Shown here one piece after another: positions 31,116 to 57,686 of a stretch of 64,000 bases of DNA. Origin of the DNA: Eukaryota sp. GEM-RC1 (lineage: Eukaryota). Where the stretch lies: positions 1,984,001-2,048,000 of the forward strand of contig JAUFOQ010000013.1 of assembly GCA_040285855.1 (NCBI GenBank), read 5' to 3'. Position 1 is the first letter of the stretch, and the number at the start of each line of letters is the position of its first letter. A model generated the notes under the pieces. The model made no database searches. It worked only from the letters and a program-made list of their open reading frames with translations, and was not told the origin of the DNA. The position numbers and the translations under genes are program-made.

Positions 31116-31173
31116 AGAAAATTTAGAATCAATAAACAAATTCAAATCTAGACTAAAAACTACATTCAAGTTA

Positions 31174-34913: not shown

Positions 34914-35382
34914 GTGCCAATATTCCTTGCAATTCTTCAACCAATATTGCATTATTTCAGTATTGCAACAATATGATTCATATTATGTATTTATCACAAA
35001 AAAACCACATATTCTGCTGTCCATCATCTTTAGAAGAATCCGAAATAATCTCAAAGCCATTGTCTACATCTTCGAATTTTTGACTGTTCATGATATGTCT
35101 TACAGATGCTTCACTCCGAAAATCACTATCTTCTTTCATCATTATTTGCATTTCAAGACTGGAGGGCTTAACAGAAAATCACTTCAGTGGAAAGAATATT
35201 CATTGTACTTTAGTAAACACTGGAGCTGAGCTCAAATGACAGACATTATGACAATGCAATAACTACATGTAGAAACCACTACCGAGAAAACAACTCTCAC
35301 TATATTTACACACTTAAGCCAGCAAAACGGGTTTTAGAAGTCCAAAGGAGAAGCAAAACAACGAAATGAACAACTCAAAGTA

Positions 35383-35922
35383 CACTAATTGAAAAATAGT
35401 CTCACATGGTAATTAGTCTCACTCAGACTAATTAGCATGTGAGACTAATTATCATGTTAGAAAAATAGTCTCACTCAGATCAATTATTATTGTTGGAAAT
35501 TAGTCTCACTTCTTGAAAAAGTTGTTGTCATTCATTACGACCAATAGAGTAGAAAAACAGTCGTTCGGTGCGTCTGCTTGAATTTCTCCCACAGCAATCC
35601 TATTAGGATGGTTATACCAACCAGAAGGCTGTGCTAGAACAAGCTTATTATTGAAAAATCGACATCCTGACTCAATTTCTTGACTTGTAAACACAAAGAT
35701 CAACGGAGACGCTATACATAAGAAAATAGAAGAAATATCAACGTGGTTCAGTATTTGTATTCGTTGAATGTTGTTCTATTTTATAGGTATTTTATATCAA
35801 AAAGTGAGACTAATTTCCAATCGAGTTTCAGTGTAAAGTGTTACAGCATGGTAATCAGTCTGGGTGAGACTAATTTCCATGTGAGACTATTTTTCAATAC
35901 AGACTAATTACCATGATTAGTG
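35383..35922. mobile_element. Tc1/mariner-like MITE
   Basis: TA-CACTAAT ... ATTAGTG-TA ends with inverted CATGGTAATTAGTCT and TTGAAAAATAGTCTCAC blocks. Confidence 0.75.
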
Positions 35923-36928: not shown

Positions 36929-37777
36929 TCAAACAAAGTTATCCATTTCAGTTATTCCAGTCAAATGTGCGCTCTTGATTAGAGCTGATTGCTTTTTCTG
37001 ATGATAGTTGGTGTGAAAATGAACTAGAGAGTAGAAAACCATCTTAAAATGGTAATACAATCCAGCCATTATAAAGAAATGGAAAACCTCGTGACTATGT
37101 ATGACACCGTCAATTATGACAAGTCTATCTTGAAGGTATCCTTCTTGTATGGCTCCTATTGTGTACATTAGTCCTCCAACGATTAAGTAAAACAGGGGAC
37201 GGAACTTCTTATGTTCTCTCCAGATTAGCACCATACTGATTGTCCCCATCCAACCCATTGCAATGTAAAGAGCTCCTGAGAGAATGCTATCACCAAACTG
37301 ATCAAAAAGATTGTCTTTAGAGTCACTGCAGTGGCAGTGATCACCCACATTATGATGACGATTAGCCAACGTGACCAAAAGGTCAAAAAAAGCAACAGAA
37401 TGGATTGCCGAAAACGTTCCACTAATGAAACAGAAGATAGCAGCATGATCGATCCTCCGTAGAACTAATCGGCCCATAGTATAAGTGGGGAGGAGATGAT
37501 AGACTCCACTTATACTCATGGAAAAGACCGATCCAAAGATAAACAGAGAAACACCCATGATTGCTTGCTTGTCTTTACATCTTTTGAACAAAACTGGACA
37601 GAAAGCAAGAGTCAGAGCAGCTGTAAGTAAATGACTCCAGGAGTTGACGGGCTCAGCAAAGCCTAATGCCGAATAAATAGGAAAATGTCTATTGGAAGGT
37701 GGTGCGAATGGGCGATTGTCTTTCGCAGACACAAAGATTAAGAAGAGAAGAAATAGTGAAAGTTTGAAGAAAGCCAT
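36929..37777 (-). CDS. hemolysin-III / PAQR family membrane protein
   Basis: EPVNSWSH, SGVYH, RRIDHAAIF, MGWMG, GGLMYTIGA, HEVFHFF; an internal compensated frameshift near 37320-37380. Confidence 0.88.
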   Translation of the reverse strand: MAFFKLSLFLLFLIFVSAKDNRPFAPPSNRHFPIYSALGFAEPVNSWSHLLTAALTLAFCPVLFKRCKDKQAIMGVSLFIFGSVFSMSISGVYHLLPTYTMGRLVLRRIDHAAIFCFISGTFSAIHSVAFFDLLVTLANRHHNVGDHCHCSDSKDNLFDQFGDSILSGALYIAMGWMGTISMVLIWREHKKFRPLFYLIVGGLMYTIGAIQEGYLQDRLVIIDGVIHSHEVFHFFIMAGLYYHFKMVFYSLVHFHTNYHQKKQSALIKSAHLTGITEMDNFV

Positions 37778-38052
37778 AGATGCAAGTTTTTATTAAGTTT
37801 TCGCGTTTGGTCCTGTCTCTGGACGGGGGAGAACCATCTTTCTTTCTTCCTTGACTCGCAAAGTACGATCTCTCGCTGGATAAACAGTGCATATACTCCT
37901 TCTTATGATAATCTTTCATCTTCTCATTCTGACCGTCACAAGCTGAAAGCATATGTCGACTTGGAAATCTTGATTGATTGTGTTTTTCTTTTGTTCATAA
38001 AGTTAAGTCACTTATGTCAGTCTATTGTCACTATCTATTGTCTTTTAGTTGT

Positions 38053-38117
38053 CACAAGATGTGTTTTACAAGATGTGTAATACAAGATGTGTTTTACAAG
38101 ATGTGTAATACAAGATG
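38053..38117. repeat. 14-bp repeat ACAAGATGTG(TTTT/TAAT) overlapping the PIF1 stop codon
   Basis: About 4.5 units; the same unit recurs at 41431-41545. Confidence 0.9.
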
Positions 38118-40607
38118 AAACTATCAAAATTACCTATATTGTCCAATCTTTTCAAAATTAAATATAATTCAAATAAAACACACATACCAGTCTTTTCATC
38201 ATTTTTCAAATACTCTTTCAAAACATGAAACAATTCCACAATCACATCACTACAATAACGTTCATCAACATTATCCTTATTAATCACATCGGTAATGTAA
38301 CAGTTTCTTATTGTTTTCACTTCCATACTTGATGCAGATTCAGATCCAATACAATCTAGTACATTATCGACAATTGACTGAATTCCAATAGTTAAGTCCA
38401 CTCTCAATTGTTTTGAAGTAGCAACACGATTATACTCCAAAATAGGAGACAGTGATGTTGTTTCATAATTCACATTGTCAGTTTGTTGATATTCACATAT
38501 GGAATCACATTTTTCATTTTCAAAGCTTTCAGTCTGAACTTCCTTGAGACAAAATCGTTTTTCATCATCAATAAGAGGAAACACTTGGGAACTTGTTCTT
38601 TCTATACCAGCACTGACATTCTTTTTTAATAATAAAATCTTCGTTGGTAAAGAGGTTTTCTTCAAACGGGGAAGTGATGGTAGAATACTTTTGCTTCGTG
38701 GTAACTGAGGAAGTTTAGACTTATTGACACCAATCTCTGGGGAATTTTTGTTAAAAATTGAGTCACAATTAATAAATTTGGGATGAATATTAGTTTCATC
38801 TTCTTCATCATTTACCACAAAATCATCTAAACTTGTTGAAATTGTATCACTGTCAGATTCATCACCAGAATCGGATCCTGATAGTAGTGCTTCTGTTTCA
38901 AATAAATTTGATTTGTCTAAATGATTTTTGTCCAAGTCAATAATTTGATTATCATTATTTTCAATAATTTGTTCATCAACATTATCAACAACAACTTCAT
39001 CAACAACTTCATCAACACAATGAACATCTTCAGGAACAACAGCATCATCCATAATTGGGTCACTCGATTCTGCACAAAAGTTTGCAAACAATGAATTAAA
39101 ATGATTGAAATCTCGTTGAAGACAATGTTGATTTCCCAAAACATACAAATCAATAGTGGATGGCTTAACAGGATGAAAAGTTGAATAACACCATTGATGC
39201 AATTCCAAATTTGGTACTGGATAACTTCTTCCAATGCTTAAAATCTTTAAACTCCTCCAAGACCTAACCCTACTTAAGGTCACATAATGTTGGGCATATT
39301 CCCAAAACTGGATAGCAACTTCAATCCCGTCAATTGTTAAACCTTGGGATCGATGCACTGTTATCGCCCAGCAAGGTCTTAGCGGAAACTGAATTCTTTT
39401 CGCCACTTGAACAGGTCTTCCGATTTCGTTCAAGTGTTCGATAGCAAACCTTGACTGACTGATTCTTTTCGGTTCTGCTTCAGCGTTGAACCGAACATCA
39501 ATATATGTATCTGAAAAATTAACAATAACTCCTTTTGAACCATTAACTAGTCCAAGTTCAGGTTTATTTTGAGTGTACATCACTTGTCCACCAACAACAC
39601 AGTCAAGTTTTTTTTCAGCAAAGTCATCTAAACGATTTTTCAGCACAGAAGTTTCAATGTCATAATATTTTTCCAAATTAGATTCATTGACCGGAAATCT
39701 AGAACTTCTTTTTCTAATTTGAGATTTTAATTCAGATTCATTGAATTTGTCAACAGCTACAAATTCAATTGAATCTGAATTTTTGCCCGAATTTTGAATT
39801 GTTTTAAATTTTCTCTAGCAACATCAGTATTCTTTCCGTATAAAATTGTTGGTTTTCAACAGATTCTGCTGTTTCGAAATGATTACGCAGAATTGATTTC
39901 ATAAAATTATCAAAAAGACCCAATCTCAATTGATTTAGAAAATTAAATTGGGAATCTGATTGCTGTCGAATACTACCAGCCAGTTCACAATATCTAAAAT
40001 TTAAATTGTTCCAAGCTCTTGATGAAAAAGCGAAATCAGAAATTACCACTTTTCGATTTCCTTTTCCATCAAGACTTTTCACAACAGGGGTTAATTGAAG
40101 AAAGTCCCCAAAACAAATTATCTGAATTCCTCCAAATGGTTTCTTCGGGGAGTGACATTTTTGCGTGTGCATAAGTTCGCCCAAAATGTCACTCGCCCGT
40201 TGAAACAAATTGGAGGACAACATTGAAATTTCATCAATGATTAACATTGAATTTTTTGGAGTAATTTTTTTTAACAATGATTTGACATTTGATGGCATAC
40301 ATTTAATAACATCATGTATGGATTCTTCTTCTTTCATAAACTTATAACCAAACAGTGAGTGTATGGTCTGTCCACCAAAAACAGTTGAGGCAACCCCAGT
40401 TGTTGCAGTGAAGAAGATTTCACCATTAGCACGCATGAGACGAGATCCGACGTTACTCCACCAGTATTTGAGAGCATGCAAAAGATAAGATTTTCCTGAT
40501 CCTGCACCACCAGTGACAAAGAAGTTGTGTCTGCTGGTAGTGATTGCGTTAAAGATCTCACGTTGGTCATCTGTGAGATTGATGTTGTGTATAGTGGTTG
40601 GTGCCAT
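38066..40607 (-). CDS. PIF1-family SF1B helicase with long acidic C-terminal tail (frameshift near 39810)
   Basis: GGAGSGKS, ATTGVAS, IIDEISM, FGGIQIICFGDFLQLTPV, QFPLRPCWAITVHRSQGLT, YVTLSRV. Confidence 0.93.
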
Positions 40608-41430
40608 TGAGTTGATGGATTGTTTGAGCGCAGGGAAACTTGGTCTTCATCAAATTTCTCTTTCACTTCAAACTATGACTTTATCCTTGAAATGGGACTG
40701 TATTTCAATGGATCCGACGAGTTCAATATAATCTCACATTTCCGCAGTTCGCGACTTCAAGTCCTTTTATATTGATTCTGTGAACATTTGTCCTTCCATA
40801 CGATTCATATGCAAGCATTTTCTATATCACACCAGTAGTAGTGATGCAGGATGTGTGTTTGTATGTTTATATGTATCATCTCTGACTTCTTTTTGTAATA
40901 GTAAACTTCGTTTTAACATCTATGTCTTCTTGTTTATAGATCAAATCTTACTTTCAAACCAGTATGATATTACTCAGCGACATTACTCAGCGACTAACTA
41001 ATACATCTAGCACCGTCTTCCAATAGAATCAACACAAAATGTTAAAAGAGGAAAAGAGGGAATGTGTTTCCGATAAGTTTGGCGAGAAGTGTAAAGCAGT
41101 GGATTGACCAAACAATAAAGAGTACGCGTAAGTCTGTTTGACTGGGATTAGAATTGTGATGTCTTGATGTTATCATAGAAAAGATATGCAACGACGATAC
41201 GCAAACGAGACACTAGCTGTTTATTACACAAGAAGGAGAATCAAAGACCAAGGGGTAACAATATGGCATTTAACATGTGTATCGGGTGTATGTCTTCAGC
41301 AAATGTCACTAGCCTTCAGTTTGGGGAGTCACATAACTCTAAAAGAACGAGAAGTAACAGAGTGTGGCTTCGTTGTGGATATGAGTTTGGATGAAGAAAA
41401 TGTGGATGTAGATACAAGACTGGATGTGTA

Positions 41431-41545
41431 ACACAAGATGTGTTTTACAACATTTGTAACACAAGATGTGTTTTACAAGATGTGTTTTACAAGATGTGTA
41501 ATACAAGATGTGTAATACAAGATGTGTAATACAAGATTTGTAACA
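41431..41545. repeat. 14-bp repeat ACAAGATGTG(TTTT/TAAT), about 8 units
   Basis: Read directly; lies just downstream of the stop of ORF 41554(-). Confidence 0.9.
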
Positions 41546-41553
41546 ATATTAAT

Positions 41554-42333
41554 CTAGTTACACAGATACTTACAAACATACTTCACTACACTATCATTAA
41601 ACTGCAACAATTCATCACATAAATTATCCACATCAATCTCATCATTACCTGACATTTTCCAAGTCAAAACATGTTTCAAATCAACAAAATCACTTCGTTC
41701 TAAAATAAAACTAAACAAATTGACAACTCCAGTATAATCATTACAATTACCTTTTGCTAAAACAATGTTAACAAAAATCAAAACAAACTTTGAAACAGAC
41801 AAACAATAATCATTGTCCTCAAGTAATAACAACAGTTTATCTTCAATCTTTTTAAAATAAACAAATCTTAAATGACCATCATCATGAAGTGAACTTTGGA
41901 GGAGTACAGGAATTAATAAAGTTGTAGAAGATCGAGAACTGTGACAAAATATTATACCAACTGAACAAGCAAAACTATTGATCAGTAAATGCAAATGCTT
42001 CAAAAATAAACAAGTGTCATCATTGAGACAACAATGAAGAAGAATATCAATTAACCCTGTCCAATTGAGAAAACTGTTGAGTAGAGGCGTGAACTGCCAA
42101 AGATGAGATACTCTGATTAAGACTTCATCAACATTAGAAGTTTCTGATGAAGGGTAGAACAGAGTTGACACAAGATCTTTTAAGGATGTTGATATAGATA
42201 TGGTCACAGAATCATCTCCTAAAGAAGTACAATGACAACAATTGCATAAGGTTATCAAACTTCTGTTGCATTGTTCATGAAACTGTGCTAACAGACTTGA
42301 CATCACTTCAAGAGAAGGTTCGTTCAAAGACAT
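41554..42333 (-). CDS. hypothetical Leu/Cys-rich protein
   Basis: About 260-codon open frame; no recognised motif. Confidence 0.5.
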   Translation of the reverse strand: MSLNEPSLEVMSSLLAQFHEQCNRSLITLCNCCHCTSLGDDSVTISISTSLKDLVSTLFYPSSETSNVDEVLIRVSHLWQFTPLLNSFLNWTGLIDILLHCCLNDDTCLFLKHLHLLINSFACSVGIIFCHSSRSSTTLLIPVLLQSSLHDDGHLRFVYFKKIEDKLLLLLEDNDYCLSVSKFVLIFVNIVLAKGNCNDYTGVVNLFSFILERSDFVDLKHVLTWKMSGNDEIDVDNLCDELLQFNDSVVKYVCKYLCN

Positions 42334-42376
42334 TGAGATTACGATGAAGGAAAATTTGTTTACCGGCAAAATTTGC

Positions 42377-43018
42377 ATGAACTCATCAACAAACGTTTTG
42401 TCTCGGAAACGTCGTCTTTCTGCTTATCAGAGGAAGTATGCATCTAAACATCAAGATGTATACAATGTCTTTTCTTTTACTGAGACAAAATCAACTCCTT
42501 CAACTTCACCTTGCAATCTCGGAATCAATGGAGATTATATCTTAATCACCCGAGCTGCTGATAGTACTTCTCATATCGCAGTGTCCACCAACAATACAAC
42601 ATGGTTTAAAAATGTTGTTGGTGATAATCTTAAGGAAAACATTGAATTCTTTATTAACAAAGAAACTCATATTCTTGAAGAAAAGACTGGTACCACTAAT
42701 TCCTTGTCATCTCAAAATTTATATAATGTTTTGATTCAAGATCAATCTGACTCAGCAATAGACTTGTCTGATTTTGCAGAACATGAACAACATCAAAAAG
42801 TTTCATGTTCTGCAAGACTTTCTAAGATGAAGAAGTCTAAATGTCCAAAGGCTGTTAGAGAAGAAAACTTATTGAATGAAAAAGAAGAATCAAGTAACTC
42901 AAGCAATGACTTAGAGTCAGAATCAACTGGAACAACTGAGATTACTTCGACTCCACTCCCTCCTCTTAAGTCTCTTGTCAAAAAATCCAATTTTACGAAG
43001 AGTCCTTTTGAACTTTAG
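42377..43018 (+). CDS. hypothetical Ser/Thr/Lys-rich protein with NLS-like RKRR
   Basis: 213-codon ORF divergent from 42333(-); no recognised motif. Confidence 0.5.
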   Translation: MNSSTNVLSRKRRLSAYQRKYASKHQDVYNVFSFTETKSTPSTSPCNLGINGDYILITRAADSTSHIAVSTNNTTWFKNVVGDNLKENIEFFINKETHILEEKTGTTNSLSSQNLYNVLIQDQSDSAIDLSDFAEHEQHQKVSCSARLSKMKKSKCPKAVREENLLNEKEESSNSSNDLESESTGTTEITSTPLPPLKSLVKKSNFTKSPFEL

Positions 43019-43390
43019 ATATATCTTCCCTTCATTATGTACATGAAAGAAACCATCATATACAATAAAGATTTTCTGACCATATAGTGAAAAAAAGTGA
43101 GAAGAGATGTTGGTTGTTGACAAACACGACATGTTGAAGATGAAATTGTATTTCAATTCTAGACTTTTTCTTCACACCAATTATGCGTATGAATCAAGTA
43201 TAATTCTAATTTCAGACTATGTGATGCCAAAAGTAAGTTTTGGTGACGATCAGTGCTTACTCTTACATCGGTTCCAGTTGCTCAGAGAGTTCCTGAACAG
43301 ATTGCTATCTTCCGGCTTTGTTCCGCCGCTAATGTATGTTCATCTCTAACCGCAGATAACCTCTCAACCCCTTTCTCTCTGATTGTATAT

Positions 43391-43458
43391 CCTTCCCCAA
43401 AACAACAAATAGGGATAACATTCTCGTTAACAAGAGTCATGCCTTGAAAGTGTTGGTT
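43391..43458 (+). repeat. single diverged copy of the CTCGTTAACAAGAGT hairpin unit
   Basis: TAGGGATAACATTCTCGTTAACAAGAGTCATGCCTTGAA aligns with the 120-bp array unit. Confidence 0.85.
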
Positions 43459-44360
43459 CTTCTCTCGTTGTTGCTACAATTTCTCCTCTCCATGTCAATA
43501 CGCTCATTATTACCAGTCTCCTCCTTCTTCTTCAAAACATCAACCTGTAAAGACAAAGTTATTCACCGCAGTAGCTGTAAAATCAACAGTGATACTTAAA
43601 TCAATAATAGTTGTCCTTAACAATAGAACTTTACAAAACGTAATTAACTGAGCTTGAGATCCAATATTTGTTTGATGACTCTTGATGACTCTTGGAGTAG
43701 AGAGAGGAAAGAACCAAAGAGCAAACGTTGATGTTGAGGATAAACTTTTTCGTTCACTTGTTCAGCAAGTACTTTTGGGGTCGTTCGCAAATCGCTGACA
43801 TCTATCCTGTTTTTGCCTCTTACTCACTCGTTCCTTTATTAGTCTAATCCTGTATTAGTTATTGTAATACATTAATCCACGTGAATGACAAATTCAACAT
43901 GGAATGAATAAACCAAACTTTTTTGCTCAAGATAGTCCCAATCAATAAACCATTTGTATAATATTTTTAATTTTTATTGTAATGTATCCCTTGATGTTCA
44001 GTGATAACAATCTGTTATAAATAAATATATTCTCACAGCCGAATGCTGGCTGTATAATGGTCATACAGCCAGGAATCGGCTGTGAAAATTGCAAATGACT
44101 TCCATAAGAAATCAAATAGCTTAAAATATGTAGCAAAATGTACTGATTCTTTAAATGTATATGAAATCAATCAATCAAAATCACATAAAATTTGAAAACT
44201 ATTTAATAAATAGTTAACCTTAACCAGTGGTCTCTTAATCGTCTCACACTAAAGCAACAACCATACAGTTGTTTATAACACGTAAAGAAGAATTCGTGAT
44301 GAAAAAGTTGTCACTTGAAGTATCAAATTGTTTCACATATATTTCCTCAAAATGCAATTC

Positions 44361-44921
44361 CCTCCCCCAAAGTCAGCAATTAGGGATACCATGCTCGTTA
44401 ACAAGAGTCATGCATTGAACTATTGTTGTTTTTGGTGTTTTGCTTCCGTCGTTGAAACTGATGACTTTCTGCTCACGCCTCCTCCCCCAAAGTCAGCAAT
44501 TAGGGATACCATGCTCGTTAACAAGAGTCATGCATTGAACTATTGTTGTTTTTGGTGTTTTGCTTCCGTCGTTGAAACTGATGACTTTCTGCTCACGCCT
44601 CCTCCCCCAAAGTCAGCAATTAGGGATACCATGCTCGTTAACAAGAGTCATGCATTGAACTATTGTTGTTTTTGGTGTTTTGCTTCCGTCGTTGAAACTG
44701 ATGACTTTCTGCTCACGCCTCCTCCCCCAAAGTCAGCAATTAGGGATACCATGCTCGTTAACAAGAGTCATGCATTGAACTATTGTTGTTTTTGGTGTTT
44801 TGCTTCCGTCGTTGAAACTGATGACTTTCTGCTCACGCCTCCTCCCCCAAAGTCAGCAATTAGGGATACCATGCTCGTTAACAAGAGTCATGCATTGAAC
44901 TATTGTTGTTTTTGGTGTTTT
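44361..44921 (+). repeat. tandem array 1: 120-bp unit x4.7
   Basis: Identical units at 44361, 44481, 44601, 44721 and 44841 (partial); open frame gives 40-aa repeats with LVNKSHA..YCCFWCF. Confidence 0.97.
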
Positions 44922-45359
44922 CCTCCCCCTGATGTCCTCTCCAGGTTGTTGCATAAGAAGACCCCTGATGCTTATTCGATGGATACACCTACTAAAGGTA
45001 TCTCAGTCATGGCTGCATCTGGGATCCATGGGTGACTTGGCGCTAGGGCCAGACAAAGGTTCCTTTCCTCGCGATCCCCCCAGATGTCCAGCTAAGCACC
45101 ACGCATCGCGTCATGCTGCTCCAATATCTTGGATTCTACAGTTTTCTGCACAAAAACGTTTGACAATTGATAAACAATGTTCAAGTTACGCCATTTGTAA
45201 TCAATGTATGCTCCCCCGACAGCCTGGTATACTTCCACAACAGCATGATTCGACCAGGCCCGTCCAATGCTGTTTAACCGCTCATACTCTTGATTTCTCG
45301 AAATTCATTCGCGTTGTAAATCCTGCCTGTTGTCTTTCGTTAACAACAATGTTGACGAT

Positions 45360-46414
45360 AGCACTAACACTGTGTCATCAGTATTTGCAAAGATCTAAAT
45401 TTTTTAAAGATACCTTTCCAACGCCAGATTCTCTTTCCCCATTCACAGTCGATTCAGCAAGAGAAGTAAAAACTTGGCTGCGAGAACTGACCCCACCAAA
45501 ACATTTTACCAAAAATTACATGGAAAAACTACTCAATGAAATTGTAGAATATGCTGAAGCTGCCGATGGCCAAGCTGTTCTTTCCAGAACAAACAACTGA
45601 CGAAGCTGATGAATATGAACAAGTACAGGATTTTAATAATACATCTATTGATATGTCTGTAAGAATTGAAAACTATGCTTCCCGATTACTCAATGTTGAT
45701 GCAAAGTTACAAGATACCTGGATGTTTCGATCACTCTATCGCTTTTATGTCTTTGCCAAGACATATTTATTTTCAAATGAAACTGATCAAGAGAATTACC
45801 GAAATCAACAAATTTCTTCAATTTATTTGTTGGTATTTATGCTAGGTTATCAAAGTTACATTATTTCCACTTCAGAATTTGAAAATTGTTTTGAACCCTT
45901 TGTAAATCTAATGAACTTCCCATTTGTTTTCATTAGCTATATATTCAATGGAACAACACACGAAGAAGTTGTTGAACAAGCAATTAAAGATGCTTTGAAA
46001 TATAAGACAGAGAAAGCCAAAGTTATTGATTTATTACAAGATGTTGAAGAAACACCCGAAGATCTTACGGAAATTCTCCTTGATGTTAGTAGCTGCTGAT
46101 GATACTAAACCAATTGATGTAATGTCACTCAAAGTGCTTACAATTTCACAATGCACCAGTTCAACACGAAACCAAACTCGGTATTGTTTGCTAATTGGGG
46201 AATTTTGGAAAAATTTTCCGAATTTAGGTGTCAGATATCAATTATTATTGATCTTCCAGACACGCCAACAACATTTCCTTTTATTCAACAAAGAACTGAA
46301 AACGCACTGTTTGTTATCATGGATAACAAACAACCCCAAAGCAAAAAGTGGAATACTTTCCACGCGTTTTTGAGGCAAAATCTTACAGATGTGGAATACA
46401 AAATGAGGGAATAG
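45360..46414 (+). CDS. hypothetical protein, frameshifted; C-terminus weakly resembles a degenerate SF2 helicase C-terminal domain
   Basis: Overlapping ORFs 44932-45600, 45551-46099, 46026-46373, 46151-46414; SVLFANW..IIIDLP..FIQQR. Start uncertain. Confidence 0.4.
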
Positions 46415-46724
46415 TCTTTATTCATTTTTTCGTTCTTTATAAATTGTTTCGTTCTTAGTTTTTATGGTTAATTCTACACCTCAGACAGTGACTTACTTGA
46501 TCTTATTTATATGTTTTCTTGCCAATTTTTCGATTTACAAGTCTTTGTATTTTACATATATCCAAAACATAATATGTTTGGACATACACATTACTGATTA
46601 GATTTAATATTGTATTCCATTAAAATCAAGCAAAATGAATATTTTGAAATCTTTTGATTTTGAACATAAACCTATAATTCAGTCAATTATAACTTGCATA
46701 CAAGAATACATTATCGTTTATTAT

Positions 46725-47296
46725 TCACTCTTTTGCTGCTCTAACAGGAATTCTAGTACTACTTCGTCGATCATTTCTATTTTCAGGTAGATTATCAAGA
46801 AACGGAAAAAAGATATCTACCAGTTTAATTCGATATCTCATGTCCACCACCTCTTGTTCATCTTGACTAGAATCATCTTGACTAGAATCTTCTTCACTAA
46901 CGTCTATTTCATCTTCACTGTCAATGACAATAACTTCATCTTCATCATCATTTTCATCTTCATTTTGAATATCAGATACCAAAGTTCTCCCCTGGATTAG
47001 TGAGTTAGCATTATCCACTGTAATCCATCCACAAATACATGAATTTGTCGGTTGCAGATGAGGAATAGAATACTTCACAGAATACGATGGCAATTTACAA
47101 AAAACGGTTGAACAATTAAAGATTGATAATTTTGATAATGCAGTGAATCGTAAATATTGAAATTGAACTTATTATTTTCGTTTGACAATTCAACCAAGAA
47201 CCAATGTCCATAAGTCTTTCTTTTTGAACCCTTTGGAACATTTTCACTGTATGAGTCCAAACAAATCGGGATTAAAATTTTGACACTCAATGACAT
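46725..47296 (-). CDS. Ulp1/C48-like protease domain with acidic tail (frameshift near 47090)
   Basis: ILIPIC..GHWFLV..IYDSL then QPTNSCICG, followed by a SIM-like EVIVIDSEDE. Confidence 0.6.
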
Positions 47297-47576
47297 TTAT
47301 GAGAAGTGTTTTTACAACTCTGAGAAGAACTGACAACCAGTATTACTTAAACGCAGAGGAGTAGATCGGGTATAGATTCTATATTTCTGTGAATAAAAAG
47401 ACTGTCTACACTTGCTGTTTATGAGCTAAATTAATCACCCAATAAGACCATAAGATAATTCCGACATAGCACTGTATGAGAATATGGTGACATTGTCATT
47501 GACCTAGACAAGTGACATCAAAGTCTTGTATAGTACGAAAAGTCTTGATTCATTTCTATCTACTGTACTGTTGGAT

Positions 47577-50500
47577 ATGTCAACAGTTCCTCTTCTCCCT
47601 ACTAACAGAACAGATTCTCCTCTTTGTGCCAATCCTTGCCCAATGAGCTACGTACCCATACTCGTTAACAAGAGTTATGCAGTTTGTAGTTGTTGTTGTG
47701 GTTCTGCTCTCGCCGCTACTAGTACAGATTCTCCTCTTTGTGCCAATCCTTGCCCAATGAGCTACGTACCCATACTCGTTAACAAGAGTTATGCAGTTTG
47801 TAGTTGTTGTTGTGGTTCTGCTCTCGCCGCTACTAGTACAGATTCTCCTCTTTGTGCCAATCCTTGCCCAATGAGCTACGTACCCATACTCGTTAACAAG
47901 AGTTATGCAGTTTGTAGTTGTTGTTGTGGTTCTGCTCTCGCCGCTACTAGTACAGATTCTCCTCTTTGTGCCAATCCTTGCCCAATGAGCTACGTACCCA
48001 TAATCGTTAACAAGAGTTATGCAGTTTGTAGTTGTTGTTGTGGTTCTGCTCTCGCCGCTACTAGTACAGATTCTCCTCTTTGTGCCAATCCTTGCCCAAT
48101 GAGCTACGTACCCATACTCGTTAACAAGAGTTATGCAGTTTGTAGTTGTTGTTGTGGTTCTGCTCTCGCCGCTACTAGTACAGATTCTCCTCTTTGTGCC
48201 AATCCTTGCCCAATGAGCTACGTACCCATACTCGTTAACAAGAGTTATGCAGTTTGTAGTTGTTGTTGTGGTTCTCCCTCGCGAAGTGTTTTAGACCTCT
48301 CTTGTACATTTTTCTCATCCCGTCCCCCATTCAAAAAAGATCTCACCATGGATGGTGACGTGGAATCCAATCCAGGGCCAGTTTCTCAACAAGCTTTAGA
48401 TTGTTTGCAACCTGATCATTTGGTAGATGATGAAGTCTTTGTTGAGTTTTCTAGATCCATATTTCAAACATATTTCGAACTACAAGCATGTAGTGTAGAT
48501 TTCGATGATCTTTTTATTCAACCTGCTCTTTTAAAGGGACATAATCTTTTTCCTGATTTATCGTTAGATGTTTTTTCAATGACAAAGTCAATGTCACTAA
48601 GGCAAAAGGATACAACTATCTCATAATCCCACTAAATAATTCCATGACAGAACCGGCCAATGATGGAACACACTGGGGGCTAGTTATTGTCGATTGTGTG
48701 CGTTTGGAAGGTATATTTATTGATCCACAGTGTGATTGAGATTCTTCAATAGAATCTTCGTCTTTGAAACAGATATTCAATATAGTTCAAACAACTTTTG
48801 GAACTTATAATCTCAAACCAATTCCTGTTGCAACCAAGCAAACTTTAAACGACGGTGTAATTTATGTCCTAAAATATATAGAGAAATTTATTGAACTTTT
48901 GTCACAATTACGATCAATCCCTGGGCTGTATTTGGAATCCAAATTGCTTGAAATAGCCAACATAAACACTGTAGAAGTTCGCCAAGAGATTCAGAACCGT
49001 TTGAGTCGATCAGAGACTAAACCCAAAAAAGTTGTTTCTGATGAGACTTTGACCTCTGTGGAACCGAATAACTGGGTCGATGATGAAGTTATACGACTAT
49101 ATTGTAAGAAATTATTTGAAATTTATGGTCTAGGTTACGATTGGACTTCTTTTATCCCCCCTTCAGTGATGAAGTATTACATCACTAGTCACAATCTGTT
49201 ATCTTTTCTATATGATAAAATTCACGAATGTTTAAATCGAGGCAACAGATTTCTTATTGCTCCCTTGAATGATGGATTTACAGAACCAGCACAATCTGGT
49301 ATTCATTGGGGTTTGATTATCATTGATTGTCAAATCAGGAACTGGATGTTTATTGACCCATATTACGATACTGGTGATTTTGCACAGGATGGAAATATTA
49401 TCAAGACTTCTCTGCTGACAAATGTCCTTTCTATAGTAGTATCAGTTCTTAGCATTCTTGAATTCGAACCAATTGTTTTTCCTGTTACGCGAAAGCAGAC
49501 GCCCAATGATTGTGGAATCTATGTTATAGAGTATATTCACCAATTTTTGAACATTCAAAATGAACTTCCAAGCCTGTCTCATGCTGAAGCGTCGTTGCTT
49601 AATATGGAAATTGATGCTCTTGCTGTTCGAAACGAAATCTACTCGTATCTTGAATCACTTAATCCACCAGAGGAAGAGGAAGAAGAGACTGAGGAAGAAG
49701 AAGAAGAAGAGTCTGAAGAAGAAGAACAGCTAATGTCCAAAGAATCGTCTATTAGGTTAACAGACCTACCACCAAAATTGCAAGAATCTATTTCTTTATA
49801 TCCACCGTCAATGCAAAAGGATATACTTATCATGGAAGAAAGTCTACACACTGAACCTGTAAAAGAAGTTGTTTCTGTAGACACCTTAGTCTCCTCATCT
49901 AAAAAAGAACTACATAAACCTCAAAAAGTGGAATTACTCCTCCATTTAAGAAATCGAATCTATCAGAATTAACAGAAACAGAAGAAATCCCAACATTTTG
50001 TTTAATTGATTTTAAAACAATGATTACTGATGCAAAACGACTTAATCCAAGAATTCTCAAATCACCTAAAACTGTATTGCCTAAAAAAAGTGTCGACTCT
50101 GATGATATTGAAGATGACTCTGAGGAACCAGAGGATGCTGATATACCTAAAATCAAAGAAGAAGTTGAAGCATCGAGAGCAGAACTGTTTGCAAATCCTT
50201 TGGATAAAGAAGACAAAATAATCTTTATCAGTCTCAAATTTATCTATGCTAATTTCACTTCAACTGTTATTTTTAGTAAAAGAACATAAACAATACATTT
50301 GAAAATGTCGAAATAATTGTTTGTGCTTCAGAAGAAGCCATGATTGGGGAACTTATCCAAGTTTTATGCCAAACAAAACCCAGATTGTTGATTGGTTATA
50401 ACACTGATGAACTTTTGTTTCCTTTTTGATTAAACGGTGTGAAATGTTCAAGATTCAGACAAATTTTCATTTAGATAATCCATACAGACCCTACGTACCC

Positions 50501-53442
50501 AACTGGTTTCATAGATGGTGTAAGCTTTGCAATTTTGGACCTTTTGTTTCTCTAGACTTGGCAAATGTTACAAAGTCTACTTATGTCTTCAAAGGTGGTA
50601 GAAGTTTGGAAAATGTTTGTTCAAAGTTGTTTCGTAGACACGTACCGAATTTAATTTTGTCGTCATTAGAATTAACTACGTACTTCACAGAATTTCGAAA
50701 AGTACCAGGCATAACTGTTAACAAGGAAATAGAGAAAGAGTTTAACCTACTCGCACACAACAAGCAAACCTTCAAATTGTGGACTGATAATGCAAAAGTA
50801 ATTACTCTGGTTGAAGATTTACTTCAACGAATTGACTGTTTATCTGAATTACATGAATATTTCTTTGATGAAGAAACTCAACATGTTCTAGAGCGCCATC
50901 CAATTAAAGTGGTGAAAAAGGGACTGGAGAAAGTTATTAAAGATCAGGATAATATTGTCTTAATTAAAGACTGTGTTATCCGAAATCAAAGAGCAACAGT
51001 AAGGGGTTCTAATTTTTTGAAACATCTCCTTATGTGTGAGTTTGAAACACGTGGATGTGAATTAAATTTGATGAATCCTCATTACTTTCGTCCATATCTC
51101 CTAGAATCTTCTGTTTCGGAATCAAAAGAACGAGATTTAATGTACGAACATGATTTTTTTGAGAAACGACTTCGTGAAATGAAGTTAATGTACGAACATG
51201 ATTTTTTTGAGGAACGACTTCGTGAAATGGAGTTAATGAATGAACATGATTTAGATTCGTATCCATCAGAACTTTCTGATTTGTTGGCATTAAATGATCG
51301 TAAATTAATGAAGAGCCATGATACAATGCCTGATTCTGATGATGCATCTGTTTCTGATCCGTTAGAACCTTCTGATTTACCCCTCTACACTAAGTTTTCC
51401 GTAGTCTTACCAGATTTGGAAAAAACTGCTTAAACACGATTCTATTAGACAAGTATTGAGACGGATGTATGTGAAGAAATAAACTGGTTCTTCAATTACA
51501 AAGTCAGAACTAGAAATGTCAAGAGCAGAGGCTCAAAAAGTGATTGACGATTTCCAAAAATCTTCAAGACTAGAAATGAACGAAAAAGAAAAAATTGCAT
51601 TTCACTACTTGAACAACTTTTCTCCACTTCTACAACAGTTGTCTGATGAAATTGGAACAAATCAAATTTCATTTCCTGATTCTACGTCAATGTCTCCCAT
51701 ATTTCATTACACTGCCAAACAAATTTCTACAAATTATGCAAACAATATGGTCAAAAATTTTCATGATTATGTATTCAGATTCTTTAATCTGGTAACAAGA
51801 AAGAAGGTCAGACTTGAACAAATCAATGATCAAGTTAGTAAGAAAAAATTGATTTCGAAATTGAATTCAGTCAGAGATTCGATTATCAATGGAAATTTTG
51901 ATGACATTCCAATTGAAGATCACGAGATTTTCCCTAATCAACGTGAAGAACTAACGTTGAGGTTTTTTGCGTATTTAAAATTTTCTTTGTTTCCAATGTT
52001 TTCAAAAAGAACATTTACTATTTACAGAAAGCAAAGCCGACAGAGTTAATTTCTCATGCTCTGTACATCAACCGAACAATACAATCTTTGTGTTTGGTTG
52101 ATGGAAAACCAATCAGTGTAAACAACCCTTTTCCAATGACGAAGACATTGATTCCTCAGCATATTCGTTTGGACACAGGTTGGATGAATGATAGATTTGT
52201 TCATATACGTGGCAAAAATGCAGATGAAATAAGAAAAAAGGTCTTTGATCAGGTCCTTACTGACAAAGCTGTGGCACCAACAAAATCATTTGTCTTTAGA
52301 TATTCTTCAATTCTGACTGATGGAATTTCTTGTTGTTTGGTTTTAATGAGGAAAGATTTAGTTGATGAAGATGGAAATACTTTCAAAGATTTTACTGCTA
52401 AATCTCTCGGAACTTCGGAAAGATACATTCACTCTTTATCAAATGAGAATATTCACGAATTACAATTGAAAGAAAAAAAGAATTGTCGGTGTCGATCCCA
52501 ATGAATATGATTTAATGTATTGTGTTTCAGAAAAGACAGTCGATGAGCTTAAAGAAGAAGATATTTCTGAAAATAATCCACTCAAAAAACGATTACCCTT
52601 AGAAATCAGAAGTAAGAAAAGAGGAGGAATTAAGAAAAGAAAGAAACAGTTACAAGATTGGAAAAATTCGAATAATGATGTAAAAATCAAAGAAAAAGAC
52701 TAAGCACAAATGGAAGAAGTTTAATTACACAGCGGGAGAAAGAGCTTATGATAGGAAATCTAAAAAATATCGTAAATCTGAAAATAGAAAACTGAAAGAA
52801 TTTTCTATCGAATCACCAGACGAAACTGTCACTGAAAGACAACTTAAAGATTTTTTGGTTCTCCACCCTGATAGAATTCTTGTAACAGGAAGAGATGTCG
52901 TTAACCAATTCTCCAATGCTGTATCAAACGGGGAAAGAAAGTCGTGTTTCAGTGACACATTTGAAACATATATTAAAGAAGCTGAACGATATAACGTATA
53001 TTTGAGTTCTTTCTACGAAGATGACTGGTTTAGAAAGAGGAAATTCCAAATTTATTCTAATAACCAACGTTCGGAGAAAAACATGCTAGAACGCTTCAAT
53101 TTAACATATGGACCTCCAGAAGACGTCGTCATTGGCTATGGGGATTGGAGCTCAAAAGGTAAAACAAGAAAGTCTCTGTCTCTCGAGAGATCTAAAACTC
53201 AAACAACAGATCTCGAGAGTGGTAAGGATACTTTGGCGAGAGACCAGAAGAAGAAGAAGACTGCGACCAAGAAGGAGAAAACTTCAACAGGAAAGGCTCG
53301 TAAGAAACCAACATGTGGAAATTGTGGCCAAGAAGGTCATAACAAAACGTCATGCAAGAATCCACCAAAAGAAATGAGTTCGCCTAAAAGAAGAAGCGTA
53401 AAGTCAGTCAAGAAGAAGAAGCTCTCTCGTAAAGGACTTTAG
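47577..53442 (+). CDS. inferred polyprotein: Cys-rich repeats - 2A - Ulp1 x2 - PolB exonuclease-like - Fanzor1-like - CCHC; disrupted in this sequence
   Basis: Abutting same-strand ORFs whose breaks fall inside or between domains, mostly at A/T homopolymers; two in-frame stops (TGA 48737, TAA 51480). Continuity is inferred. Confidence 0.6.
47610..48275 (+). repeat. tandem array 2: 114-bp unit x5.8
   Basis: Units at 47610, 47724, 47838, 47952, 48066 and 48180 (partial); one C-to-A variant at 48003; 38-aa repeats with LVNKSYA.CSCCCG. Confidence 0.97.
48339..48380 (+). other. 2A / StopGo ribosomal skipping peptide
   Basis: DLTMDGDVESNPGP matches D(V/I)ExNPGP exactly, in frame between the repeats and the first protease domain. 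Confidence 0.9.
48390..49650 (+). CDS. tandem Ulp1/C48 (SUMO/NEDD8-protease-like) domains; the first lacks the catalytic Cys
   Basis: Domain 1: LVDDEV, IIPLNN, GTHWGLVIVD, FIDP, KQTLNDGV. Domain 2: WVDDEVI, IAPLND, GIHWGLIIID, FIDP, KQTPNDCGIYV. Confidence 0.85.
49990..50860 (+). CDS. family-B DNA polymerase 3'-5' exonuclease-like domain, probably inactive
   Basis: IPTFCLIDFKT, DKIIFIS, SEEAMIGEL, PRLLIGYNTDELLFPFLIKRC, SLDL..RSLENVCSKL; the Exo I E, Exo II D and Exo III YxxxD are not canonical. Confidence 0.65.
50900..53442 (+). CDS. Fanzor1-like (eukaryotic TnpB homologue), C-terminally altered
   Basis: FLKHLL, HYTAKQISTNYANNM..FHDYVFRFFN, PFPM..IPQHIRLDT, ILTDGISC, RuvC-I IVGVDPN (Asp 52494-96), FNYT..ER, RKRKFQIY..QRSE, VVIGYGDWS; no RuvC-II/III before the stop. 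Confidence 0.85.
51138..51250 (+). repeat. 48-bp in-frame repeat, about 2.3 copies (LMYEHDFFE.RLREM.)
   Basis: Read directly; inserted in the Fanzor N-terminal region. Confidence 0.85.
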
Positions 53443-53495
53443 TGTACTTTTAACGGTACACAGTGCAGTGGGCTTAGCTCACTGGGTGTCTGTGG
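53442..53495 (+). ncRNA. candidate omegaRNA scaffold (continues at 57691-57700 beyond the LTR element)
   Basis: Hairpins GTGTAC/GTACAC, CAGTGGGC/GCTCACTG and, after removing the insertion, GTGTC/GATAC directly 3' of the Fanzor ORF. Function inferred from position only. Confidence 0.4.
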
Positions 53496-53595
53496 TGTTA
53501 GGTCAATAATGACGTGTAATTATGACCTATGCCTTTTTATAGAATTGTACTTTAATAAACCTATCTTCACCATCGTTTTACGCGTAGAAGCAACA
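53496..53595 (+). repeat. 5' LTR
   Basis: TGTTAGG...GCAACA, identical to 57587-57686. Confidence 0.97.
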
Positions 53596-53625
53596 GTGAT
53601 CACTGACGCTATTAGTCACTGAACC

Positions 53626-54381
53626 ATGGACCGCCCTAGAACCACCCCCATCCTCAAAGGACTTACCTCAGACCAAGTACAACAATATCTTGATGATTTC
53701 AAGATCGCCCAGAAGAACGATGACTCTCTCTCCCTGAGAGATGGAATCCCAGACACCATCTTGGAAGGCATTTACCTTCTAAAGCCTCTGGCCGACCCTG
53801 ACTCTGAAGAAGACCCACACGAGGGATTTGTCTCTGCCGAAGAAGAGCTGAAGGGTTTCTTCGAGAGCCGTCAAGCGATACCCAGTCTCCGTTCCCTTGT
53901 CTCATCTCTAGCAAACTTAAGACCTGATTTCAAAGAAAGAGATACGGAGGCAAGATACCTCGCGTTCGCCGCAAAGTTTCAGAGATTGAGGAAGAGAGCC
54001 AGTCACCTCAACCTTGACCTCCCATGGTGGATGAATCAATTTGCCGAGAAGGTTCGTCCCACCAGGATTGCCGAAGACTTCGTAGAACGCATTAAAGCCG
54101 GTTCCATCCCCTCGATGACTATTCTGCTACAAGAAGTCATTGATGAATGCAGCGCTTTTGAACGACTTGATGGGTACCGCACGCCCAACAAACCTTCGTC
54201 CCGCAACCACCATAGCACCCAGTCCCTCACGACCAGTGGAACTCCCAAAGCCCTCACCAAACTCACGGACAAAGAAAGAACCGAGCTCTCTCGATCTGGT
54301 TCCTGCTTTAGATGTAGACAGAAGGGTCACGTGGCTGCGATGTGCCCTCTCGCTGTGAAAAAAAGAAATAAACGCTATTAA
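53626..54381 (+). CDS. gag: Gag with CCHC nucleocapsid knuckle
   Basis: CFRCRQKGHVAAMC. Confidence 0.9.
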   Translation: MDRPRTTPILKGLTSDQVQQYLDDFKIAQKNDDSLSLRDGIPDTILEGIYLLKPLADPDSEEDPHEGFVSAEEELKGFFESRQAIPSLRSLVSSLANLRPDFKERDTEARYLAFAAKFQRLRKRASHLNLDLPWWMNQFAEKVRPTRIAEDFVERIKAGSIPSMTILLQEVIDECSAFERLDGYRTPNKPSSRNHHSTQSLTTSGTPKALTKLTDKERTELSRSGSCFRCRQKGHVAAMCPLAVKKRNKRY

Positions 54382-57300
54382 CTATGAAAGCCCCCCAATC
54401 CCTCCTATCCTAATCCCTGTACTCATAAAGGAAGAAGAAATTCAAGCCTTTGTGGACCCCGGATCAGACTGCAGCCTCATCCACTCAGACTTAGTGAAGA
54501 GACTACAACTCCCCCTCTTTTTTCACCAAAGTACAACTGAAAGGAATCCACGGCACCTGCAGAACCTCCTCTGGTACATCCCAAGTTCAATTTGAACTAC
54601 TCGAACCACATAATCTGATCTCCACAGCCAAGTTCATCGTCTATGACACGGCTTACCCTATAATCTTAGGCCGTGAAATTCTTCACGATCTAGGACTTCT
54701 GTCGGAAAAAGGTCTATTCTTGCATCTTAAAGGCAAAGAGGACTTTTCAGACGATGACTTAGAACCCGAAGTACCAGATCCCTGTCAGCCAAACCCTTGG
54801 AACAAGGACGATGACCCTAACGAAGTATCCAAAATCAGAGTACAACTAAATCCCTCTCAAGCATCACAGATATACTCTCTGCTACAACACCATGTCGAAG
54901 TCTTTGATACTAAGCCTCATCCCGATGGTCTAGACTGCCCAGATTTCGAAATCCCCTTCCTAGACGAGACCAAAACTACCAAAGCAAGACCTAGGCCCAT
55001 GAAACCCAGGCAACTCGAATTAGCCAAATCACTTATGAAGGAACATGTCGACTCTGGTGTCGCAAGAGTTGTTAGCGAACCCCGGTTTAGTAGTCCCGTA
55101 GTTCTCAAAGAATATGCTGATAAGAAACCACGACTTTGTGGCGACTACAAGAAGATCAATGAACTGAGCATCACCCACGCTGCTGAAATTCCACGAATTA
55201 CTGACATTATCCAAAAGATAGCGAACGCCACCTATGTAGCCGTCTTCGACCTAAGACGGGCTTTCTACCAACTTAAAGTGAGCCCGAGAGATGTGGAGAA
55301 AACTACTATCTCTGTACCAGGCCTAAGCATTCAATACCTCAGAGCGCCTTTCGGATTAAAAAATGTTCCGGGATACTTTCAAGACCGTCTTGGGTCAATC
55401 TTCAACACTGACTACTCCGACATCTACATCGATGACCTCATCGTTTTTGGAACCGACTTTGAGAGGTTCAAACAGAGCCTCGACAAGACCCTCGGAAAAG
55501 TCAAAAGCATCAGAGCTCGCCTGGCCGCCCCAAAAGCTGTGATCTCAGATTGCTCTCACAAATTCACACTTTTAGGGTTCACATTCCTTAACCAAACGAA
55601 ATCTATCAGTGAGGACAAACTCAAGCCCATAAGAAACGCCACATACCCCGCCACCATCAAACACCTACGCTCCTTCCTCGGGGCAACAAACTATCTAAGA
55701 GAATTCATTCCCAATTTTGCAGACATCACGAGGCCCTTATACGACCTACTACAGAAAGGAGCCAAATTCATATTCTCAAAGAGCCACAAAGAATCGTTTG
55801 ACGTCTTGAAGCACCACGTCATTAACTCAGTCCCTCTCCAGCTGCCGACAGAAACTCAGAAAGTTATTGTGACGACAGATGCTTCCGATTCTCGCCATCG
55901 GAGGTGTGATCTGGGCCGACAATACAGCCGACGAAAATAGTCCCCTTGACAAAAAGAACTTAGTCCCTTTGTGTTTTTACTCAAAGAAATTGAACAAGAC
56001 GCAGACAGCCTGGTCCACGAACAAGAAAGAGTTGTTCGCCATAGTTTCTACCCTGTGTCTCTCAAGCCTATCCAACTTCCTGATCTCTCATCCTTTCACA
56101 CTTTACACCGATCATCGCAACCTTGTCCATCTCCACACAACAGAATCTCCCATGATCTCCCGATGGAGACCCCTACTCAGCCAATTCTCTTTCAAGATCG
56201 TCCACACACCTGGAAAAATAAACTCCATGGCTGACTTCTTGTCGAGAAAACCCGACCACCTTCTTCCACACAGAGAAGTCCTAACCACCGAATCACCAGT
56301 TAACAAGACCTCCGACAACATAGTGTCGCACCTGATCAAAACAGTTCACTCTAATGGACACCTAAGCCAGGAACGCACCCTCAACCACCTGAAAACTTTG
56401 GGCTTCAGTGCCCCTAACCTCAAAGACTGGGTCAACGACATTGTTTCCAACTGCGGAACATGTCAAAAGGCGTCAAACATCCCAAGAAAGACACCAGCCC
56501 ACACAGGCTCCCTGGGATCATCAATGCCCTTCGAAAGCCTCCATCTAGACTGCATAACTTTACCAAAAGACGCTAAAGGATTTAAACATGTACTAGTAAT
56601 AGTTGATGGCTTCTCGAAATTCACTTTCTTAACACCTTTGAAGAATCTCTCAGCGGAAGCAACATGTGATATCCTCACTTCTAAAGTGTTCAGCATTTTT
56701 GGACTTCCTCTACAAGTCCACTCAGATGGAGGAAAGGAATTCGCAAACAACCTGGTCAAAAACCTCCTCTTGAAACTAGGAATCCAACAGACCTTTTTCT
56801 TTCCCCAACCACAGCCCATCAAACGGGCTAGTAGAACGAGTTAACCAAGAAGTTGTCAAACTTACACGAAAACTGTCCACTGACACTGCTAATCATACAG
56901 ATTGGAGTGATAAAATCCCTCTCATCCAGCTCATTCTCAACTCAGAACCCTCTTCCACTACCAAGTTGTCACCATATTCCTTATTATTTGGTAGACACAT
57001 TAAGCCTAGACGTAACCTACTCGATGTACTACTGTCCAGAAATGACACCACAGACAAAACCTCAAACACTCATTCCTTCGTTGATCAGATATCCAAAGAA
57101 ACCCTTAAGCTTACTTCTGAAGCTATCAGTCGAAAGAGGAAAACCGTTGATGCCACCCCAAATGAATTTCTAGTCGGTGACCTGGTACTCCTCGACGATG
57201 CTCCGAACAAACTGTTGAACTTACTAGGACCGTTTCAAGTGACCAAGAAACATGGCAACTCCGGTTACGAGATCGAATCAATAGTAGCTGACAAGAAGAG

Positions 57301-57592: not shown

Positions 57593-57686
57593 GTCAATAA
57601 TGACGTGTAATTATGACCTATGCCTTTTTATAGAATTGTACTTTAATAAACCTATCTTCACCATCGTTTTACGCGTAGAAGCAACA
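57587..57686 (+). repeat. 3' LTR
   Basis: Identical to the 5' LTR. Confidence 0.97.

Follow-up and report, generated by a model that had tools for sequence, protein, structure and literature searches.

A PIF1- and Ulp1-bearing block of repeated DNA in Eukaryota sp. GEM-RC1 and its possible origin as a stack of mobile modules

Eukaryota sp. GEM-RC1 is the metamonad Skoliomonas sp. GEM-RC, and its genome is available as a chromosome-scale assembly with 48% repeats (PMC11316075). We analyzed a window of 64,000 nt from this genome (contig JAUFOQ010000013.1, positions 1,984,001-2,048,000; coordinates below are those of the window), in which a block of about 15 kb (38000-53495) lies between a haemolysin-III-like gene (HlyIII) on its left and a long terminal repeat (LTR) retrotransposon on its right. 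The block carries a PIF1 helicase gene, Ulp1-like domains, the exonuclease half of a family-B DNA polymerase (PolB), a Fanzor1-like gene, and orphan open reading frames (ORFs). The closest named relatives of its genes all come from GEM-RC1 itself, and because PIF1 and the orphan ORF A have many near-identical gene models there, the block is, as far as gene models tell, repeated, young DNA. Since these two genes are multi-copy, dispersed, and separately placed, with tandem units, a different flank, and a common array, we tentatively favor a reading of the block as a non-autonomous, damaged, head-to-tail stack of modules from a lineage-specific, unclassified mobile-DNA family whose cargo includes virus-like replication genes.

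Copies of PIF1 and ORF A in GEM-RC1

The PIF1 gene (38066-40607, minus strand), already named in a first-pass annotation of this DNA, is matched by Pfam (PF05970, E 2e-33) and encodes a stand-alone helicase with an acidic C-terminal tail and the sole Walker A motif of the block. It contains frameshifts near 39852 and 39800, both of which are bridged by an uninterrupted frame in relatives; the relatives begin at a methionine shortly before Walker A and have no Rep fusion. In GEM-RC1, PIF1 of the window type is represented by 18 gene models on seven contigs (13 N-terminal halves, three C-terminal halves, and two longer models; 87-97% identity), next to a sister family of 19 members at about 60% identity (15 of the 19 listed). 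Five PIF1 models (P0154, P0155, P0158, P0159, and P0166) stop at one and the same A run; sequencing may err systematically at this site, or the frameshift may be inherited or programmed. ORF A (41554-42333, minus strand) is an intact orphan of 259 amino acids (aa), which has nine named relatives on five contigs at 93-97% identity, seven of them with the same length. It could be assigned to no family by Pfam, PHROG, or NCBIfam; these scans covered the long ORFs plus 97 of 118 short frames (the others being 19 off-frame pieces over PIF1 and two already scanned), 15 ORFs, and 12 ORFs, respectively, and its single-sequence AlphaFold model is poor (pLDDT 36). One named relative each was found for the Ulp1-like domain b (87%) and for the PolB-bearing ORF (a short one). 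No named PIF1 relative from another skoliomonad is among the 120 matches listed. In exact protein look-ups, six of ten block sequences, including that of ORF B, fell outside the collection, which has no bearing on copy number.

The two minus-strand genes share a feature at their 3' ends, where each carries the same 14-nt tandem array in the same orientation. The first array (ACAAGATGTG-TTTT/TAAT, 4.6 copies; 38054-38117) lies at the PIF1 3' end and probably marks the left end of the block, and the second (8.6 copies; 41423-41545), also delineated by repeat search, lies 9 nt beyond the ORF A stop codon. A non-coding spacer (40608-41422) extends 5' of PIF1, and part of it (41343-41408) recurs in model P0164 with 22 of 22 residues identical. 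In P0164, the 5' half of a PIF1 is thus connected to spacer sequence that, in the window, follows the second array upstream of PIF1, an arrangement expected of head-to-tail PIF1 units. In model P0170, the PIF1 3' end continues into a different, host-like protein that is absent from the window and that we take to resemble a sugar kinase. Copies of PIF1 also cluster with other PIF1 copies, and copies of ORF A with other ORF A copies, in twos or threes (close gene-model tags are 006863/006867/006869 and 011558/011560).

In the window, PIF1 adjoins ORF A. By contrast, none of the nine ORF A relatives lies within three tags of a listed PIF1 tag, and their distances to the nearest listed window-type PIF1 are 13, 15, 54, 54, 151, 160, 178, 213, and 543 tags, so that movement of the block as one unit is not shown. 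The first-pass annotation had proposed a large mobile or virus-derived element spanning 15.5 kb. The words "mobile or virus-derived" stand, as the genes are multi-copy and dispersed rather than single-copy and one PIF1 3' end meets a different host-like gene; a single element of that size finds no support in this lack of adjacency or in the unequal copy numbers (PIF1 18 + 19, ORF A nine, Ulp1 one, PolB ORF one).

Several points weigh against a stack of separately placed modules. The family scans detected no mobilizing enzyme in the block, and neither a circle nor an empty site was observed. The median distance of ORF A tags to PIF1 is somewhat shorter than that of random tags (151 vs 326, p 0.064). 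The sole relative of the PolB-bearing ORF lies five tags from a sister-family PIF1, and both observations would fit larger composite units. Ends, empty sites, and co-location were judged from gene-model tag numbers, not genome DNA, and the junctions in P0164 and P0170 come from predicted splicing rather than from DNA. The gene models were built after repeat masking (PMC11316075), and with 15 of the 19 sister members listed, this makes the non-adjacency of ORF A and PIF1 a soft result. A search of supplementary files of that paper gave no occurrences, although repeat annotation in them may have been missed.

The plus-strand frame and the hairpin repeats

On the plus strand, 47577-51433 forms one broken frame, interrupted by about five breaks, that comprises a leader, a 2A motif, Ulp1-like domains a and b, an acidic linker, the PolB exonuclease half, and an unassigned tail. 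The Cys-rich leader (47577-48282) consists of 5.9 copies of a 114-nt unit of 38 codons each. It is followed by an exact match to the 2A/StopGo motif (DLTMDGDVESNPG/P, with the skip site before P; 48339-48380). The pattern D(V/I)ExNPG/P has this single match in the window and none in 100 shuffles, and its Gly-Pro skip site aligns with the beginning of the first Ulp1 domain; we regard it as a putative ribosome-skipping site. Eukaryotic 2A sequences are described as usually lying close to the start of coding regions and, in excavates, as occurring chiefly in Trypanosoma (PMC12338488), and 2A motifs are reported from non-LTR elements (PMC3708506).

Three Ulp1-like domains had been counted in the first-pass annotation, and they differ in quality. 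Domain b (49013-49660) is solid: It contains His-Asp-Gln-Cys motifs, is followed by the acidic linker, and exceeds the Pfam cut-off for PF02902 over 49034-49660 (24.2 vs 20.7 bits). It is the only one to combine a Pfam match with the His-Asp-Cys triad plus Gln of peptidase C48 and is a predicted Ulp1-like protease. Domain a (48381-49003) is a homologue (E 1e-25 to domain b; Pfam C48 E 0.069) but damaged, with a frameshift, an in-frame stop, and no catalytic Cys. The third, a decayed candidate with an acidic tail on the minus strand (46728-47425), was recognized by eye from HW/D/Q/C motifs; it had no Pfam match, and its score with a purpose-built hidden Markov model (HMM) fell below those of shuffles.

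The PolB-bearing ORF (49918-51433) includes the ExoI-ExoII part of a family-B polymerase at about 50090-50460 (Pfam PF03104, E 1.5e-5; 25 bits vs a cut-off of 23). A delta-type PolB HMM, built from 77 PolB sequences (viral contigs found via a motif, with E. coli Pol II eligible), scored 42.8 bits on the X-joined frame, whereas 200 shuffles reached at most 5.4 bits. An Atlas search with this ORF gave no usable match. The ExoI Asp-Ile-Glu is retained and the ExoII Asp is lost. An ExoIII motif and a polymerase continuation, both spotted by eye, are unsupported, with no match to either. The best viral PolB is 26% identical over 118 columns, an archaeal PolB matches at E 0.1, and a scan of viral sequences with E. 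coli Pol II gave no confirmed match.

The leader repeats are related to two other sites in the block. At 44361-44921 (plus strand), the repeat search found 4.7 copies of a 120-nt unit, 100% identical and each open over 40 codons, and at 43390-43500 (plus strand), repeat alignment identified a single hairpin unit of 115-120 nt with the core CTCGTTAACAAGAGT. The 120-nt and 114-nt units are homologous (score 178 vs a shuffle maximum of 98), and the single unit is homologous to both arrays (scores 123 and 109 vs shuffle maxima of 73 and 71). The 15-nt core occurs 12 times, every time inside the block (expected 0.22), and is part of a predicted hairpin, in which the two arrays differ by one compensatory change. 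Each unit length is divisible by three, and the frame left open is the same in both; the units may act as an origin, an RNA element, or a peptide repeat. The core had no match in metagenome and viral contigs. Together with the 14-nt arrays (38054-38117 and 41423-41543), the 120-nt (4.7 copies) and 114-nt (5.9 copies) arrays bear out the private repeats that had been reported for the block. A separate, non-coding hairpin with 27-bp arms, found by inverted-repeat search, lies at 44029-44089. An assignment of the repeats as TRIM-like or tRNA-derived was rejected (no tRNA; a primer-site-like word is lost in the 114-nt unit), as was a ribozyme (none near threshold in Rfam).

If the block is a stack of modules, the 2A skip would release a Ulp1-Ulp1-PolB-exonuclease protein, which might strip SUMO or ubiquitin-like tags and thereby allow escape from silencing, while PIF1 would unwind the element during replicative copying. 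The 14-nt arrays would represent module ends or joints, and rolling-circle-like copying or recombination at these arrays could generate head-to-tail units, which an enzyme encoded elsewhere would insert near host genes. Of the other pieces, those of Fanzor-like, gypsy, and LTR type probably joined afterwards as passengers.

Probable passengers, borders, and surroundings of the block

The remaining parts of the block are orphans or probable passengers. ORF B (42344-43018, plus strand; 224 aa) starts 11 nt from the ORF A start, has no family in Pfam or NCBIfam, and may not be a real gene. ORF C (45349-46414, plus strand) is a broken, helical orphan with no Pfam match; an Atlas lead to an integrase SAM-like domain (0.85) is below the bar and unconfirmed, and its single-sequence AlphaFold model (pLDDT 44) has no Foldseek match. 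The three orphans, singled out earlier for a check of remote homology, thus have no family in the library scans, and the folds of A and C are poor. Between the 120-nt array and ORF C lies a decayed Ty3/gypsy-derived piece (44930-45310, plus strand), which probably spans the RNase H end to the integrase start. It has no Pfam match, but 44989-45120 is 70-72% identical over 40-44 aa to GEM-RC1 models bearing RT/RNase H-like and LTR-pol-like parts, and its GC content of 47% resembles that of the LTR element. Two further candidates were discarded: A profile search with the "orphan" ORF at 44899 gave two matches, both to LTR-like models, so that its N-terminal half no longer counts as orphan, and a MULE remnant suspected at 43160-43470 had no Pfam match.

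The Fanzor1-like gene (51483-53163, plus strand) is spread over four frames and ends after GYGDW. The earlier identification is borne out only in part, by two weak, colinear matches to Guillardia theta Fanzor1 (Protein Data Bank (PDB) 9cer; E 0.11 and 0.042), and the gene is truncated. Its first piece has no Fanzor match, NCBIfam gave no match for the gene, and neither a RuvC-II Glu nor a zinc finger nor RuvC-III was seen in any plus-strand frame past 53163. In Fanzor proteins, the catalytic Glu is described as standing six residues ahead of the zinc finger (PMC13565253). Their place is occupied here by a basic tail with a CCHC zinc knuckle, which is fused to the Fanzor-like piece (53164-53442, plus strand; Pfam zf-CCHC E 0.082, with PDB matches to nucleocapsid knuckles). 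A viral scan with the Fanzor-like piece confirmed nothing, and the single Fanzor-motif match (L135) contained no such frame. The gene is predicted to be inactive, and together with the gypsy piece, it looks like a separate passenger.

On the left, the block is bordered by the HlyIII gene, which encodes a haemolysin-III-like membrane protein (36929-37789, minus strand; Pfam PF03006, E 6e-23). The position between host genes given in the first-pass annotation applies to this side, and the right edge is formed by a young Ty3/gypsy LTR retrotransposon (53492-57690, plus strand). The element itself (53496-57686) has identical LTRs of 100 nt and a GTGG target-site duplication (TSD); because of this duplication, it represents an insertion at the block edge, so that 53495 is not necessarily the true end and the block may reach about 57880. 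Its TGG primer site is missing after the 5' LTR and replaced by an inverted repeat, and we would guess that it is self-priming. Short hairpins at 53440-53495 and 57690-57740, behind the knuckle ORF and on both sides of the insertion site, could mark where an element ends or be left over from an omega-RNA.

Other statements on the borders were confirmed. The block is free of the dispersed repeats of the window (0 of 15,495 bases), which cover 7,948 of 38,000 bases (20.9%) upstream of it. They are also scarce in the downstream host gene (57690-64000; 44 of 6,310 bases, 0.7%), and repeat poverty is therefore not peculiar to the block. At its ends, no terminal inverted repeat (TIR) or direct repeat was found beyond chance (the longest common word has 9 nt vs shuffle means of 8.3-8.7), and no TSD was found. 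The absence of HUH Rep, DDE transposase, recombinase, and capsid families was upheld in the Pfam, PHROG, and NCBIfam scans, which also gave no packaging ATPase, primase, or polymerase domain; remote capsids could escape such scans, given the poor orphan folds. The GC content of the block resembles that of the host.

Most frame breaks in the block fall on A or T runs. Outside the block, two host-like genes, which we take to be DDB1-like and dynein-like, are split into four and eight overlapping frames, and the pol of the young LTR element is split into three. Since host-like genes and a young pol are also broken, breaks fall on A/T runs, and PIF1 relatives read through, many breaks are likely assembly errors. 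Those in the host genes could alternatively be introns, and the in-frame stops of Ulp1 a and of the minus-strand domain may be true decay.

Elsewhere in the window, the principal debris consists of non-LTR fragments (693-2376, 5234-5842, 20792-21184, and 30328-31205) with CCHC and PD-(D/E)xK-like motifs seen by eye. A MULE transposase with a SWIM domain, two zinc knuckles, and one frameshift (16693-18650, minus strand; Pfam MULE E 2e-15) has no match in the block. It lies near two near-identical ORFs labelled by eye as ubiquitin-conjugating-enzyme-like (18799-19227 and 19718-20146, minus strand), which are separated by a 12-nt tandem array (19410-19483). Two MITE-like elements (34135-34915 and 35388-35915) are bounded by terminal inverted repeats, with GTCGACTC or GAGACTAATT repeated in subterminal position. 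A small ORF (14006-14422, plus strand) appears SET-domain-like by eye and has no SET match in Pfam.

Alternative origins and comparison with known systems

Among other explanations, the foremost, although improbable in our estimate, is that the block is what remains of a large DNA virus, endogenous and similar to Nucleocytoviricota, mirusviruses, or baculoviruses, that was broken after several integrations. Delta-type PolB exonuclease, stand-alone PIF1, and Ulp1 are described from large DNA viruses (PMC8788227, PMC10175614), Fanzor1 is likewise reported from viruses, no introns were seen in the block, and its three dispersed repeat sites with a common imperfect palindrome recall the hrs of baculoviruses (PMC4758234), so that the hairpins would be hr-like origins. 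But capsid, packaging ATPase, primase, and polymerase domain are missing from the scans, as noted above; viral PIF1 relatives are only 29-37% identical, and the viral PolB similarity is likewise low. The host-like GC content and the lack of the repeat core in viral or metagenome contigs also argue against a virus, and dozens of young dispersed copies are better explained by transposition.

A single giant DNA transposon of at least 15 kb, moving as a whole and having lost its transposase end, perhaps at the site of the Fanzor-like gene and the LTR element, ranks next among these doubtful alternatives. The block is contiguous and debris-free, private repeats connect three places in it, its parts are similarly diverged from their relatives (87-97%), and the PolB-ORF relative lies close to a PIF1. 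Such an element is difficult to reconcile with ORF A relatives that lie apart from PIF1, copy numbers that vary between 1 and 37, and missing TIR and TSD. More speculative, and in our view rather unlikely, is that the block belongs to a segmented mobile DNA whose one-gene modules (helicase, ORF A, and 2A-processed Ulp1-PolB) have common terminal arrays and hairpin origins and spread singly or stacked; no transposase, integrase, or reverse transcriptase of a known kind would take part, and a new mobilizer would be encoded by one of the orphan ORFs.

We consider it quite improbable that the block derives from a Helitron or MuDR element with captured fragments (PolB exonuclease, gypsy, Fanzor, and zinc knuckle). 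Ulp1 is a known Helitron cargo (PMC11417382), Fanzor genes are reported from Helitron and MuDR (PMC13565253), broken RepHel frames may pass for lone PIF1 (PMC8788227), and the MULE of the window looks intact. However, the PIF1 relatives have no fused Rep, and an HUH motif, a Helitron Pfam match, a TIR, and a MULE match are all absent from the block. Helitron helicases are described as distant from genomic Pif1 (PMC8788227), and the PIF1 of the block scores 143 bits against yeast-type Pif1 vs 82 against Helraiser (111 vs 56 in another run); Helraiser is the lowest-scoring of 19 PDB matches, below yeast-type and bacterial Pif1. In a FastTree phylogeny of 130 rows, six GEM-RC1 rows form a single long branch apart from the fungal rows and with no reliable sister. 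A metagenome scan with the PIF1 alignment gave 166 pattern matches, none of them confirmed. Host gene families grown by segmental duplication are very unlikely: PIF1 resembles structures of cellular Pif1 more than Helraiser, and hosts with multiple genomic Pif1 genes, such as kinetoplastids and amoebae, exist (PMC8788227), but the 37 PIF1 models with their many truncations and differing flanks, the arrays at the ends, and the 2A polyprotein argue against this origin, as do the isolated branch and the lack of another skoliomonad among the matches listed.

For the stack of modules that we favor, comparison with known systems reveals partial likeness to several. Helitrons and Helentrons (HLE1, HLE2) share with the block a helicase of the Pif1 family, Ulp1 as cargo, fragments captured from elsewhere, Fanzor genes in some cases, and the lack of TSD; they differ in that the block has no HUH Rep, fused or near, and no identified Helitron-type termini, that PDB scores assign its helicase to the cellular/prokaryotic Pif1 type, and that it contains 2A and a PolB exonuclease, which the Helitron literature covered here does not report. 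Polintons and Polinton-like viruses resemble it in size (15-25 kb), genes in both directions, a Ulp1-like protease, and a family-B polymerase part, whereas the PolB of the block is delta-type rather than protein-primed, and no RVE or tyrosine recombinase (YR) integrase, A32 ATPase, capsid, or TIR was found. With endogenous large DNA viruses and Teratorn-type composites, it has in common a delta-type PolB, a Pif1-like helicase, Ulp1, Fanzor1, and dispersed palindromic repeats, but it consists of small multi-copy modules with host-like GC, only an exonuclease half, and no virion or packaging gene. The 2A non-LTR retrotransposons (L1Tc, Ingi, APE-type) are protist mobile elements that likewise carry a class A GDVESNPGP near the start of a long frame; the 2A of the block stands before Ulp1 proteases instead of APE/RT, and the block has no reverse transcriptase. 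Two weak colinear matches and the IGYGDW motif relate it to Fanzor1 of Guillardia theta (9cer), although the gene breaks off ahead of the catalytic Glu, the zinc finger, and RuvC-III. MuDR and other DDE transposons differ by their DDE transposase, TIR, and TSD, and the only lead to Crypton/YR elements, whose tyrosine recombinase has an R-H-R-H-Y catalytic set, is the SAM-like Atlas match of ORF C, below the bar and accompanied by a low-confidence fold and no Pfam match.

The classification of large DNA elements of eukaryotes is based on the mobilizer, namely RepHel, DDE, YR, or protein-primed PolB plus integrase. Here, a lone PIF1 and an orphan gene are present in dozens of young copies with no classifying mobilizer in view, and in the literature searched, we found no 2A skip opening a Ulp1-Ulp1-PolB-exonuclease frame. 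The 2A motif, the PolB exonuclease half, the gypsy remnant, the homology of the 114-nt and 120-nt units, and the 14-nt arrays at 3' ends extend what the first-pass annotation had described. Taken together, the block misses the tested defining features of Helitrons, Polintons, MuDR, and endogenous large viruses, yet it works like that broad group.

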